Below, piece by piece: positions 41,816-43,894 of a stretch of DNA of 64,000 nt; within the stretch, counting starts at the first letter, position 1, and every line of letters begins with the position of its first letter. The DNA lies in sequence record OL956808.1; one strand, written 5' to 3'. This stretch comes from Escherichia phage vB_EcoM-S1P5QW. The position numbers and the translations under genes are program-made. The notes beneath the pieces are model-generated. The model ran no database searches, had not been told where the DNA came from, and saw nothing but the letters and a program-made list of their open reading frames with translations.

Positions 41816-41887
41816 ATATGCTTTAAGAATTATTTGTTATTATTAACTCATACCGCACTGATTAATACCCTCTATCATCAAGGGTTC

Positions 41888-41912: not shown

Positions 41913-41985
41913 TGGGAATTAGCCAAGTTGGTAAGGCACTGGATTTTGATTCCAGGATGCAAAGGTTCGAGTCCTTTATTCCCAG
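41913..41985 (+). tRNA. tRNA-Gln (anticodon UUG); CCA not encoded
   Basis: Cloverleaf folded by hand: acceptor tgggaat/attccca, anticodon loop ttTTGat, T-loop ggttcgagtcc. Confidence 0.85.
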
Positions 41986-41986
41986 C

Positions 41987-42073
41987 GCGAGAATGGTCAA
42001 ATTGGTAAAGGCACAGCACTTAAAATGCTGCGGAATGATTTCCTTGTGGGTTCGAGTCCCACTTCTCGCACCA
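41987..42073 (+). tRNA. tRNA-Leu (anticodon UAA), type II
   Basis: Acceptor gcgagaa/ttctcgc, anticodon loop ctTAAaa, long variable arm, encoded CCA; abuts tRNA-Gln (dimeric precursor as in T4). Confidence 0.85.
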
Positions 42074-42078
42074 AATTT

Positions 42079-42152
<74 letters not shown>

Positions 42153-42198
42153 ATTTATGTCTCGTCGTGAGACGCTCAGTTCTTTATTAGGGACTGAT

Positions 42199-42807
42199 AT
42201 GCATTTTTATCTTTATAAAATAACAAATAAAATTAATAATAAAATTTATATTGGTGTGCATTCTACCGAAAATTTAGATGATGGATATATGGGTTCTGGT
42301 AAATTATTAAAAAGAGCCCAAGATAAATATGGTATAGAAAATTTTTCTAAAGAAATATTAGAGTATTTTGATGATAAAGAATCTATGCTTGAAGCCGAGA
42401 AAAATATTGTCACAGAAGAGTTTTTAAATAGACCAGATGTGTATAATTTAAAACTTGGAGGTGAAGGTGGATGGGATCATATAAATAATTATCCTATGAC
42501 AGATCAGCAACGCGAATTAATTTCATTGGGTGTTAAAAAGGCACATTCTAACGGAAAATTAAAAGGATGGTCTTCAAATGGATTAATGAAAAATGGCTTT
42601 GCTGGTAAAACTCATTCTCAAGAAGCTAAACGTAAAATAGCAAAAGCAAACGAAGCAAAAGTTTCTGCGAATGAAAGAAAAAGAAGAATAGAAATTTCTA
42701 AATTATATGATTTTTCTAAGCGGGGTGAATTATCTAAATATGCTAAGCATATTGGCGTAAGTCATACTCAAGCAAAAAGAATTCTAAATCAAATTAACAA
42801 TATATAA
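42199..42807 (+). CDS. segB: GIY-YIG homing endonuclease, SegB-like
   Basis: GIY-YIG signature FYLYKITNKINNKIYIGVH...YMGSG; track ORF (42157) begins just after tRNA-Gly, ATG at 42199 has an RBS; inside the tRNA cluster as T4 segB. Confidence 0.75.
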   Translation: MHFYLYKITNKINNKIYIGVHSTENLDDGYMGSGKLLKRAQDKYGIENFSKEILEYFDDKESMLEAEKNIVTEEFLNRPDVYNLKLGGEGGWDHINNYPMTDQQRELISLGVKKAHSNGKLKGWSSNGLMKNGFAGKTHSQEAKRKIAKANEAKVSANERKRRIEISKLYDFSKRGELSKYAKHIGVSHTQAKRILNQINNI

Positions 42808-42813
42808 ATATTT

Positions 42814-42903
42814 GGAGGCGTGGCAGAGTGGTTTAATGCACCGGTCTTGAAAACCGGCAGTCGCTCCGGCGACTCATAGGTTCAAATCCTATCGCCTCCG
42901 CCA
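42814..42903 (+). tRNA. tRNA-Ser (anticodon UGA), type II
   Basis: Acceptor ggaggcg/cgcctcc, anticodon loop ctTGAaa, long variable arm, encoded CCA. Confidence 0.85.
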
Positions 42904-42908
42904 GTTTT

Positions 42909-42984
42909 GCTGATTTAGCTCAGTAGGTAGAGCAACTCACTTGTAATGAGAAGGTCGGCGGTTCGATTCCGTCAATCAGCACCA
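42909..42984 (+). tRNA. tRNA-Thr (anticodon UGU)
   Basis: Acceptor gctgatt/aatcagc, anticodon loop ctTGTaa, T-loop ggttcgattcc, encoded CCA. Confidence 0.8.
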
Positions 42985-42985
42985 A

Positions 42986-43060
42986 GGCCCTGTAGCTGGA
43001 AGGTTCAAGCAAGCGACTCATAATCGCCAGATGGTGGTTCAATTCCACCCAGGGCCACCA
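42986..43060 (+). tRNA. tRNA with CAU anticodon (Ile2-type as in T4, or Met)
   Basis: Acceptor ggccctg/cagggcc, anticodon loop ctCATaa, encoded CCA. Confidence 0.75.
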
Positions 43061-43069
43061 AATTAATTT

Positions 43070-43156
43070 GGGGAGTTATCCCGTAGAGGTAGCGGTGTGG
43101 ACTGTAAATCCATTGTCATTGCGACTCGGGTGGTTCGACTCCATCACTCCCCACCA
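43070..43156 (+). tRNA. tRNA-Tyr (anticodon GUA), type II
   Basis: Acceptor ggggagt/actcccc, anticodon stem gtgga/tccat with loop ctGTAaa, long variable arm resembling E. coli tRNA-Tyr, encoded CCA. Confidence 0.7.
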
Positions 43157-43160
43157 ATTT

Positions 43161-43235
43161 GGATGTGTAGCTCAATGGCAGAGCGATCGCCTGTTAAGCG
43201 ATTGGTTATAGGTTCGAATCCTATCACTTCCGCCA
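43161..43235 (+). tRNA. tRNA-Asn (anticodon GUU)
   Basis: Anticodon stem atcgc/gcgat with loop ctGTTaa, T-loop ggttcgaatcc, encoded CCA; one U-U mismatch in acceptor stem. Confidence 0.7.
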
Positions 43236-43349
43236 AATTTGTGACAACTGTCACATTAATATCTACTTGACGCGATTATCGGGGTTGAACTGATCACTCT
43301 TCTCTTAATTTCGTGTGAAGACATCTTGATTGTTGGAGTAGGTATTAAT

Positions 43350-43425
43350 GTGGCCGTAGTTCAGTTGGTAGAACTCGAGATTGTGATTCTCGTAGTCATG
43401 GGTTCGACTCCCATCGGTCACCCCA
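43350..43425 (+). tRNA. tRNA-His (anticodon GUG)
   Basis: D-stem gttc/gaac, anticodon stem cgaga/tctcg with loop ttGTGat, T-loop ggttcgactcc, discriminator C and CCA; no encoded G-1. Confidence 0.7.
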
Positions 43426-43429
43426 ATTA

Positions 43430-43505
43430 CGGGGCATAGCTCAGAAGGAAGAGCAAGGACCTTCTAAGTCCTGGGTCGTAGGTTCGATCCCTACTGCCTC
43501 GACCA
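43430..43505 (+). tRNA. tRNA-Arg (anticodon UCU)
   Basis: Acceptor cggggca/tgcctcg, anticodon stem aggac/gtcct with loop ctTCTaa, encoded CCA. Confidence 0.8.
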
Positions 43506-43850
43506 AACAAGAAGCCGGGTCGCTACCGGTAAGTCGTCGGACTGATGTTCCCTGGGTAAGGACTGGCATTAACAAATCTTTACGATCGGTTAATGCCCCC
43601 TTACATCACAGCAGAAACGGCGCACCGAATTATCGATTCGAGGAAATATCTTTGCCGTAAGCCGAGTAGCGTTTTTGACGGAACGTTCGGATATGGTCGA
43701 GATATGGCCTTTTAAAATATTAAGTAGCGTCAACTGCTTAATAACCGGGTTCGAATCCCGGCGTTTCGTACAAACACTTGCCTTAGCAGGTGGAACCCCG
43801 ACAAGGTTGCCGCAAGGCTTAGCCCCGACCGAAAGGTTGGGGCTTTTTAG
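43506..43850 (+). ncRNA. stable small RNA region (T4 RNA C/D-like) ending at an intrinsic terminator
   Basis: 345 nt without a credible ORF right after tRNA-Arg; tRNA-like T-arm ccgggttcgaatcccgg at 43745-43763; ends with hairpin plus T-run 43822-43850; T4 has two stable RNAs here (recalled). Confidence 0.4.
43822..43850 (+). terminator. intrinsic terminator (copy 1)
   Basis: agccccgaccgaaaggttggggc + TTTTT; near-identical copy at 44377. Confidence 0.7.
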
Positions 43851-43894
43851 TATAAATAAGTATATTAAAACCACGAATTAAAACAGGAAATAAG

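Follow-up and report, generated by a model that had tools for sequence, protein, structure and literature searches.

INTRODUCTION

SegB-type nucleases shape the transfer RNA (tRNA) gene sets of T-even phages. Two members of this class, T4 SegB (Brok-Volchanskaya et al. 2008, PMC2330249) and T6 SegB (Chihara et al. 2026, PMC13096335), are active nucleases, and the 2026 study reported that, by means of such enzymes, phages can amplify tRNA and anti-defence genes and thereby escape bacterial immunity, the role of T6 SegB being the amplification of tRNA-Tyr against Septu (PMC13096335). Here, we analyze a related gene, referred to as seg, in a stretch of 64,000 nucleotides (nt) from Escherichia phage vB_EcoM-S1P5QW (record OL956808.1), the whole of which we call the window. 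An initial annotation of this DNA had described the gene as a GIY-YIG, SegB-like endonuclease that splits a tRNA cluster. We are fairly confident that seg is a free-standing gene, in a T4-like phage, for a GIY-YIG homing endonuclease of the Seg family, most likely functional, with a mosaic architecture and with a mechanism of expression and spread of the kind proposed below.

The gene is already annotated in databases and belongs to a well-studied class; its labels are inconsistent across records, ranging from segB ("location conserved in T4; C-terminus divergent") and "truncated SegB-like protein" to "segD", "group I intron endonuclease", and "hypothetical". Our literature search found no paper describing this seg variant. 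The present analysis adds a corrected start codon with a regulatory leader, the recombinant make-up of the gene, its location in the slot of tRNA-Pro, and a hypothesis for its target.

RESULTS

A SegB-type catalytic cassette joined to a DNA-binding module of another lineage

The coding sequence and its modules are as follows.

42199-42807, plus strand: most likely coding sequence of seg, 202 amino acids (aa) plus stop; its ATG at 42199 is M15 of the longest open reading frame (ORF)
42199-42487, plus strand: GIY-YIG catalytic module (N-module), aa 1-97, with Y6, Y17, G19, E67, and N83 (Pfam PF01541)
42488-42804, plus strand: DNA-binding module (C-module), aa 98-202, with a low-confidence linker, a NUMOD3-like helix at about 42598-42642, and a predicted C-terminal helix-turn-helix (HTH) at about 42727-42801 (GVSHTQAKRIL)
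42480-42487, plus strand: second copy of TATAAATA, exactly at the module breakpoint
42803-42810, plus strand: TATAAATA, matching the consensus of T4 late promoters; it overlaps the stop codon and lies 4 nt before tRNA-Ser

The leader and codons 1-97 (42153-42487) shared 96-100% nt identity with T6 segB in each 30-nt interval as far as 42477, and positions 42213-42487 were approximately 99% nt-identical to T4 segB, whose leader and first five codons are its own. From 42488 onward, nt identity to T4 and T6 segB fell to 10-60%, and the proteins could not be aligned, with no significant similarity past aa ~103. The C-module matched that of Klebsiella phage RCIP0032, with 86-90% nt identity over 42682-42790, and that of Klebsiella phage KP13MC5-5, with 85% aa identity over the last 75 residues; the KP13MC5-5 protein, although from another genus, is likewise 202 aa long and shows gap-free collinearity with the window protein. 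Synonymous divergence (dS, Nei-Gojobori) between the window and T6 was 0.08 in the N-module, and between the window and KP13MC5-5 it was ~1.8 in the N-module and 0.39 in the C-module. At the level of sequence, these comparisons demonstrate a mosaic, in which the leader and catalytic module of T6/T4 SegB are joined to the DNA-binding module of another Seg lineage, the Klebsiella Jiaodavirus type.

Two classes of C-terminus were distinguished in the family alignment, namely an HTH class ending in GVSHTQ(A/V)RR..., to which the window gene belongs, and a T4/T6 SegB class ending in ...GWxKGRKMKF; the T4/T6-type C-terminal domain (ending ...IPEGWFKGRKMKF) was not matched by the window gene. The breakpoint lies directly after the TATAAATA box at 42480-42487, where the catalytic domain ends (...GGEGGWDHIN). 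The TATAAATA motif occurred 24 times in the window versus 9.8 expected. The copy at 42803-42810 was considered as a late promoter for the seven-tRNA block downstream and set aside, the usual spacing placing the start at ~42816, inside tRNA-Ser; no function is claimed for it.

Catalytic residues, predicted fold, and selection

The assignment to the GIY-YIG, SegB-like class was borne out both by the near identity of the catalytic half to the T4 and T6 genes and by profile searches, with a Pfam GIY-YIG (PF01541) score of 26.8 bits against a gathering score of 22.6 and a match to PHROG 314 "homing endonuclease" at E = 2.8e-55; NUMOD3 scored 20.1 bits, marginally below the Pfam cut-off of 20.4. The GIY/YIG motif reads FYLYKITNKINNKIYIGV. 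Missing catalytic residues would have spoken against the class, and the alignment revealed all of them: Y6 and Y17/G19 (numbered from the M at 42199) were invariant in 33 homologs, as were the catalytic Glu and Asn, E67 and N83, in the 33-sequence family alignment. In BLASTP, Y6, Y17, and N90 of I-TevI aligned to Y6, Y17, and N83, with the Glu (I-TevI E75) one residue off; the I-TevI sequence served for residue numbering only, the structural match described next being independent of it.

An AlphaFold2 model built on the same 33-sequence alignment had predicted local distance difference test (pLDDT) values of 93-97 for aa 1-80 and 86 for aa 81-90, low confidence for the linker (122-133), and values of ~91 for the C-terminal helices 177-185 and 189-201. 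The top PDB matches in Foldseek were the I-TevI catalytic domain structures 1MK0 and 1LN0, at a probability of 1.00. A protein sequence search against PDB chains returned nothing at E <= 1, and the link to I-TevI thus required the structure model and Foldseek. Fold matches of the C-module to HTH proteins were weak; the confident helix-turn-helix in the model, together with the GVSHTQ motif, points to a C-terminal HTH. Among the features of Seg-type genes, those found here are a free-standing ORF between conserved genes, sporadic presence in close relatives, and an N-terminal nuclease followed by a C-terminal NUMOD3/HTH module.

The window belongs to a Tequatrovirus of the RB18/AR1/RB51 group, to whose members this region is 97-98.5% identical, and the 825-nt block from tRNA-Gly through the ORF to tRNA-Ser was present in 55 phage records (RefSeq/GenBank duplicates counted in) at 98-99.6% identity, with the ORF intact in all of them. 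Because this block recurs so widely, the arrangement is not a chance one. Relative to RB18, the gene carried nine synonymous and one non-synonymous differences (non-synonymous to synonymous rate ratio ~0.03), the ratio being 7:1 in the C-module alone. Purifying selection, the invariant catalytic residues, and the I-TevI-like fold suggest that seg is most likely functional.

The label "truncated SegB-like protein" in the RB51 and RB68 annotations corresponds to another reading, in which seg is a decaying, inactive relic that is kept because its deletion would harm the flanking tRNA genes or the operon. The window protein is indeed 19 aa shorter than T4 SegB and is without some 18-26 linker residues of T4 SegB and RCIP0032, its NUMOD3 score is narrowly sub-threshold, its linker has low pLDDT, and in T2 the same module survives as a clearly degenerate remnant, trna.1 (described below). 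We nevertheless regard a relic as quite improbable, given the intact ORF in 55 of 55 records, the excess of synonymous changes over the whole gene and within the C-module, and the retention of every invariant family residue. The collinearity of the 202-aa form with KP13MC5-5 and with the database clusters P0002-P0004 of another genus further argues that the short linker is a natural variant rather than a truncation; since this linker is common to the Jiaodavirus 202-aa proteins, the label "truncated" is misleading.

Translation start and leader hairpin

Three features describe the 5' end of the gene.

42157 (ATG) to 42807 (stop), plus strand: longest ORF, 216 aa, from a program-made ORF list
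42153-42198, plus strand: leader of the seg cassette, 46 nt, with the in-frame, probably unused ATG 42157 and a hairpin over the Shine-Dalgarno (SD) sequence
42174-42202, plus strand: leader hairpin, a 9-bp stem (42176-42184/42189-42197) plus two outer G-C pairs, burying AGGGA and touching the start codon

The initial annotation had the ORF beginning within a few nucleotides of the tRNA-Gly 3' end, which is correct for the longest ORF (a gap of 4 nt, 42153-42156) and does not hold for the start codon that is most likely used. Several comparisons point to ATG 42199 and a 202-aa coding sequence behind a structured 46-nt leader. The initiator methionines of T4 SegB and T6 SegB both align to M15 of the long ORF, T6 SegB opening with an identical MHFYLYKITNK, and the 14-aa N-terminal extension was found in none of 32 aligned homologs, the nearest full-length relatives being 202 aa long; the 202-aa homologs P0002-P0004 and KP13MC5-5 run gap-free from this methionine. 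An AGGGA SD sequence (42189-42193) lies 5 nt upstream of ATG 42199. The mutant Y17A/G19A, which renders T6 SegB catalytically dead, carries a numbering that fits a start at 42199 (PMC13096335). In the otherwise conserved leader of RCIP0032, a 1-nt indel leaves the upstream GTG out of frame and behind a TGA, and the start in this phage can only equal the 42199 position. With ATG 42199 as the likely start, coding begins 46 nt, and not 4 nt, past tRNA-Gly.

Translation from ATG 42157, as in most annotation pipelines, would yield the 216-aa protein and a coding region abutting tRNA-Gly. No ATG of the ORF comes earlier, the codon is in frame in RB18 and T6 as well as in the window, and the 216-aa form is present in database clusters (P0001). 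ATG 42157 is preceded by the tRNA-Gly acceptor stem and CCA rather than by an SD sequence, and both Tequatrovirus substitutions within the extension stretch would be non-synonymous; together with the missing extension in every homolog, its frameshift behind a stop in Jiaodavirus, and the experimental T6 numbering (Y17/G19), this makes the longer form very improbable, slightly more so than the relic.

The leader is 96% identical to that of T6 segB and 80-83% identical to the Jiaodavirus leader. Its hairpin had a folding energy of -10.8 kcal/mol (z = -3.2), and equivalent hairpins were found in T6 (-11.1 kcal/mol) and in the Klebsiella phage (-10.5 kcal/mol), the nine counted pairs being kept in five of five sequences via one-sided changes (A-U to G-U, U-G to U-A). 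An Rfam search of the leader and spacers matched no known RNA family, returning only the tRNAs and chance sub-threshold matches. The "terminator-like" scan match at 42176-42197 is this same SD hairpin; the next 10 nt (TATGCATTTT) open with the seg start codon and contain no more than a weak T-run, and the match was rejected as a terminator.

Insertion site and distribution

The gene orders of the tRNA cluster in four T-even phages are given below, with Seg-related genes in parentheses.

T4: Gln-Leu-Gly-Pro-Ser-Thr-Ile-(segB)-Arg-rnaD-rnaC
T6: Gln-Leu-Gly-Pro/Thr chimera-Met-Tyr-(segB)-Arg
T2: Gln-Leu-Gly-Pro-Ser-(trna.1)-Met-Tyr-Asn-Arg
Window: Gln-Leu-Gly-(seg)-Ser-Thr-Met-Tyr-Asn-His-Arg-rnaD-rnaC

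Comparison with T4 segB, which the initial annotation had put forward, does not support positional or full-length orthology, since segB in T4 and T6 lies directly before tRNA-Arg and carries another C-terminal half. In the window, tRNA-His, not seg, directly precedes tRNA-Arg, and seg occupies the slot of tRNA-Pro in T4 and T2. The tRNA-Gly gene is identical in the window, T4, T2, and T6, with divergence setting in 5 nt past its CCA, directly after CCAATTTA. Contiguous Gly-Pro-Ser was found in 448 phage records versus Gly-seg-Ser in 55. The notion of an endonuclease that splits the array therefore stands as a description of its division into three and seven tRNAs; as an account of the locus it falls short, the gene sitting where T4, T2, and the 448 records have tRNA-Pro.

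In Jiaodavirus, presence of the cassette is polymorphic: 14 records carried it, and in most other Klebsiella-phage records the flanks were joined (601-606 nt versus 1301 nt). Here, the cassette is a clean insertion of ~700 bp in the 5-nt spacer between tRNA-Gly and tRNA-Pro. The empty site reads ...GCTCCA-AATTA-CTCCGTATAGC (tRNA-Gly, spacer, and tRNA-Pro, respectively; empty junction CCAAATTACTCCG), and the filled site reads CCAAATT/GTGACTCG...AATCAAAATTA/CTCCG, the 3' junction being AATTA-CTCCG. The same leader follows directly after a tRNA CCA and an A/T-rich spacer in the window (Gly), T6 (Tyr), and Jiaodavirus (Gly), and T4 SegB cuts 3' of CCAR at tRNA 3' ends, where such leaders sit (PMC2330249). 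From these sites we infer that the C-module may direct the enzyme to the tRNA-Gly/tRNA-Pro junction and that Gly-Pro-Ser genomes would be the recipients.

The same loci bear on a reading in which seg has the function of T4 and T6 SegB, that is, a nuclease of relaxed specificity with cuts in many tRNA genes at the T-psi-C/CCA region, selected mainly for recombination driven by double-strand breaks or for segmental amplification of tRNA and anti-defence genes, rather than for specific Gly/Pro homing. The near identity of the leader and catalytic module to those of T6 segB favors it, as does the T4 SegB core motif GGTTCRANTCC, which is exact in eight of the ten window tRNA genes and in rnaC. The left junction of the cassette, moreover, lies just 3' of CCAA, the preferred SegB cut context (PMC2330249), and amplification in T6, against Septu, has been demonstrated to depend on SegB (PMC13096335). 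However, the entire DNA-binding half, which in I-TevI-type enzymes gives most of the target recognition (PMC2330249, discussion), is non-homologous to that of T4/T6 SegB, the inter-tRNA site differs from that of T4 and T6 segB, and the window holds no tandem amplification. We therefore consider this reading rather unlikely, though well ahead of a relic.

Several further observations were made at related loci. The seg ORF of RCIP0032 overlaps the first 10 nt of tRNA-Pro (L005:3654-3663). The homolog of Erwinia phage FBB1 (L011:1434-2181) starts inside or 2 nt after tRNA-Pro, likely at a TTG that directly follows CCAAA, and its end coincides with the first base of tRNA-Ala. Both are packed more tightly than the window gene. 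Between tRNA-Ser and tRNA-Met, T2 trna.1 (L003:2929-3330), annotated as a hypothetical protein, is a relic of the same type of Seg DNA-binding module (HTH) as in the window gene; it has no catalytic domain, shares 36-40% aa identity, and ends in ...INVSHTQARKFLNK; T2, described as segB-less, was evidently once host to a related Seg gene. The "tRNA-Thr" beside tRNA-Gly in T6 (L006:3143-3228, minus strand) consists of a tRNA-Pro 5' end (CTCCGTGTAGCTCAGT) fused to a tRNA-Thr body, and its acceptor strands cannot pair. This chimera looks like a deletion scar that lost Pro-3'/Ser/Thr-5' at the shared TAGCTCAGT, as from double-strand-break repair in the array.

The tRNA array and its transcription unit

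The three upstream tRNAs were called by ARAGORN and by the Rfam tRNA model (59-67 bits), and the seven downstream tRNAs by ARAGORN, Rfam, and the RB18 annotation; coordinates of rnaD and rnaC were transferred from a blastn alignment to T4.

41819-41843, plus strand: putative MotA-type middle promoter, TGCTTTA at 41819-41825, a 12-nt spacer, and TATTAT at 41838-41843, the boxes being assigned from the known MotA-box consensus
41913-41986, plus strand: tRNA-Gln(UUG)
41987-42073, plus strand: tRNA-Leu(UAA)
42079-42152, plus strand: tRNA-Gly(UCC), encoded CCA at 42150-42152
42814-42903, plus strand: tRNA-Ser(UGA)
42909-42984, plus strand: tRNA-Thr
42986-43060, plus strand: tRNA-Met/Ile(CAU)
43070-43156, plus strand: tRNA-Tyr
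43161-43235, plus strand: tRNA-Asn
43350-43425, plus strand: tRNA-His
43430-43505, plus strand: tRNA-Arg
~43507-43625, plus strand: homolog of rnaD, a T4 stable RNA
~43632-43770, plus strand: homolog of rnaC, a T4 stable RNA
43821-43852, plus strand: predicted intrinsic terminator (terminator scan), a 10-bp stem with seven G-C pairs and then a T-run, in a block homologous to the T4 cluster end

ARAGORN and the ORF list confirmed two placements of the initial annotation, namely that the ORF stops 6 nt before tRNA-Ser (gap 42808-42813) and that it divides the array into Gln, Leu, and Gly on one side and Ser, Thr, Met/Ile, Tyr, Asn, His, and Arg on the other.

Expression of T4 segB comes mainly from a middle promoter that immediately precedes the cluster; the primary transcript that includes it is ~1.75 kb long and ends after the species I RNA (PMC2330249, citing Broida and Abelson), and excision of the segB messenger RNA (mRNA) by tRNA processing is the described model (PMC2330249). 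In the window, the 110 nt upstream of tRNA-Gln were invariant relative to T4, T6, and RB18. The scan for terminators and promoters gave a strong terminator at 43821-43844 and yielded none of either kind that was convincing between tRNA-Gly and seg; the sigma-70 scan was unenriched (14 found versus 12.5 expected) and gave no convincing seg-specific promoter. Given the T4 precedent, the conserved upstream promoter region, and the terminator after rnaC, seg is probably co-transcribed with the tRNAs and its mRNA released by tRNA-end processing, as the initial annotation had proposed. Low expression of seg is predicted from the 6-nt tail left after the RNase P cut at 42813/42814 and from the SD hairpin, as has been argued for T4 SegB.

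The rnaD/rnaC block was 93% identical to T4 (L002:2326-2669; blastn, against the T4 annotation), and Rfam holds no family for these stable RNAs. A 94-nt "tRNA-Lys" called by ARAGORN at 43678-43771 is a false positive, lying inside the rnaC homolog and lacking a match to the Rfam tRNA model. The CAU tRNA at 42986-43060 is tRNA-Met according to ARAGORN and tRNA-Ile in the RB18 record, where the anticodon is noted as probably modified; the T4 equivalent is tRNA-Ile. A 351-nt ORF lies between tRNA-Arg and rnaD in RB18 (L001:3215-3565) and T2 (L003:3688-4038) and is absent at window position 43506 and in T4 and T6. The 114-nt non-coding spacer between tRNA-Asn and tRNA-His (43236-43349) shares 80% identity with the spacer before tRNA-His in Klebsiella Jiaodaviruses (L005:2296-2383; L007 and L008:37-124), and the two, spacer and tRNA-His, seem to move between genera as a unit.

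DISCUSSION

Proposed mechanism and its weight

Our findings are consistent with a mechanism in which seg would be carried passively in a tRNA precursor of ~2 kb, extending from the middle promoter before tRNA-Gln to the terminator after rnaC. Processing of the tRNA-Gly 3' end and RNase P cleavage at tRNA-Ser would free a seg mRNA with a 46-nt leader and a 6-nt tail, and translation from AUG 42199 would be kept low by the hairpin sequestering the SD sequence. In a mixed infection, relatives that lack seg and carry Gly-Pro-Ser would be bound by the C-terminal module at, or close to, their tRNA-Gly/tRNA-Pro junction, with the cut falling near the tRNA 3' CCA. Repair from the seg-carrying genome would then copy the cassette, converting Gly-Pro-Ser to Gly-seg-Ser and eliminating tRNA-Pro. 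Tentatively, with a confidence somewhat short of even, we propose that the RB18/AR1/RB51-type gene arose as a distinct homing endonuclease by module exchange, in which a SegB leader and catalytic cassette became joined at TATAAATA to a Jiaodavirus-type Seg DNA-binding module, that its target is the Gly/Pro junction, and that its homing erases tRNA-Pro from the majority allele; it might also be a second engine of tRNA-array recombination and amplification like T6 SegB.

Several observations weigh against parts of this proposal. The cassette of the window lineage stands in place of tRNA-Pro and is not a clean insertion, and no Tequatrovirus Gly-seg-Pro(-Ser) intermediate was found among the 55 seg-carrying records, all of which span 824-833 nt from Gly to Ser. 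We infer the target site only from insertion sites, and distant homologs with an HTH-class C-module lie after tRNA-Pro (L009; L011, Erwinia phage FBB1) or antisense to tRNAs (L012), so that C-module type and insertion site are loosely coupled; the idea that the C-module is a constant marker of the Gly-adjacent site is refuted by these homologs. Because SegB enzymes have relaxed specificity (PMC2330249, PMC13096335), the C-module may also weigh less in site choice than we assume. With respect to the leader, the covariation test on the hairpin gave 100% pairing, but no pair had changed on both sides and the result did not exceed that of shuffles; since all changes are one-sided, covariation lends weak support, and the argument for the structure draws only on conservation and folding energy. 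T4 segB has an unrelated leader with an analogous, stronger hairpin (-19.4 kcal/mol computed; reported at -20.2 kcal/mol and proposed to occlude the translation start, PMC2330249), relative to which the window hairpin is the weaker one. Finally, R27 of I-TevI has no clear counterpart, its helix falling in an alignment gap, with K35 and K43 conserved and R39 not; a clear R27 counterpart is likewise lacking in T4 and T6 SegB, both of them active enzymes.

Implications

This allele displays diversification at the sequence level, with one catalytic cassette and regulatory leader combined with varied DNA-binding modules, and with landing sites that differ between Gly/Ser (window), Tyr/Arg (T6), Ile/Arg (T4), and Gly/Pro (Klebsiella phages). 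If the target is the Gly/Pro junction, this would explain the absence of tRNA-Pro in ~55 sequenced Tequatroviruses, and a homing endonuclease would then be a direct cause of differences in tRNA repertoire between T-even phages; studies of specificity would also gain a natural pair of enzymes that share a catalytic domain and differ in the domain used for targeting. Annotations can be corrected in three respects: the choice of start codon, the use of "segD", "truncated", and "location conserved in T4" as labels, and the spurious tRNA-Lys.

Comparison with known systems

I-TevI, the td intron endonuclease of T4, differs from the window protein in being intron-encoded, in its sequence (~27% identity), in its R27 helix, which is missing from the Seg subfamily alignment, and in its Zn-finger cysteines, of which the window protein has none. 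The two proteins share the catalytic fold (target-normalised template modelling score of 0.61-0.65 in Foldseek) and an organization of two domains with a flexible linker, a NUMOD3-type element, and a C-terminal HTH.

The Seg genes of Klebsiella/Raoultella Jiaodavirus (KP13MC5-5, RCIP0032, and the "SegB homolog" of Mineola, PMC6486255) have a far more diverged catalytic module and retain tRNA-Pro on their 3' side, where the window has tRNA-Ser. They resemble the window gene in the leader, the SD hairpin, the related DNA-binding module, and the position immediately 3' of tRNA-Gly(UCC), and KP13MC5-5 has the same 202-aa architecture.

T6 segB lies between tRNA-Tyr and tRNA-Arg and has a T4-like C-terminal half, whereas its leader and catalytic module, its N-terminus (MHFYLY), and the essential Y17/G19 match those of the window gene.

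T4 segB, finally, lies between tRNA-Ile and tRNA-Arg rather than between tRNA-Gly and tRNA-Ser, encodes 221 aa rather than 202 aa, and has an unrelated leader and C-terminal half. It shares with seg the catalytic domain (83% aa identity over 117 residues), a location inside the tRNA cluster in the orientation of the tRNAs, an end 5-6 nt before the next tRNA, and a hairpin over the ribosome-binding site, and each gene is presumably transcribed within the tRNA precursor.

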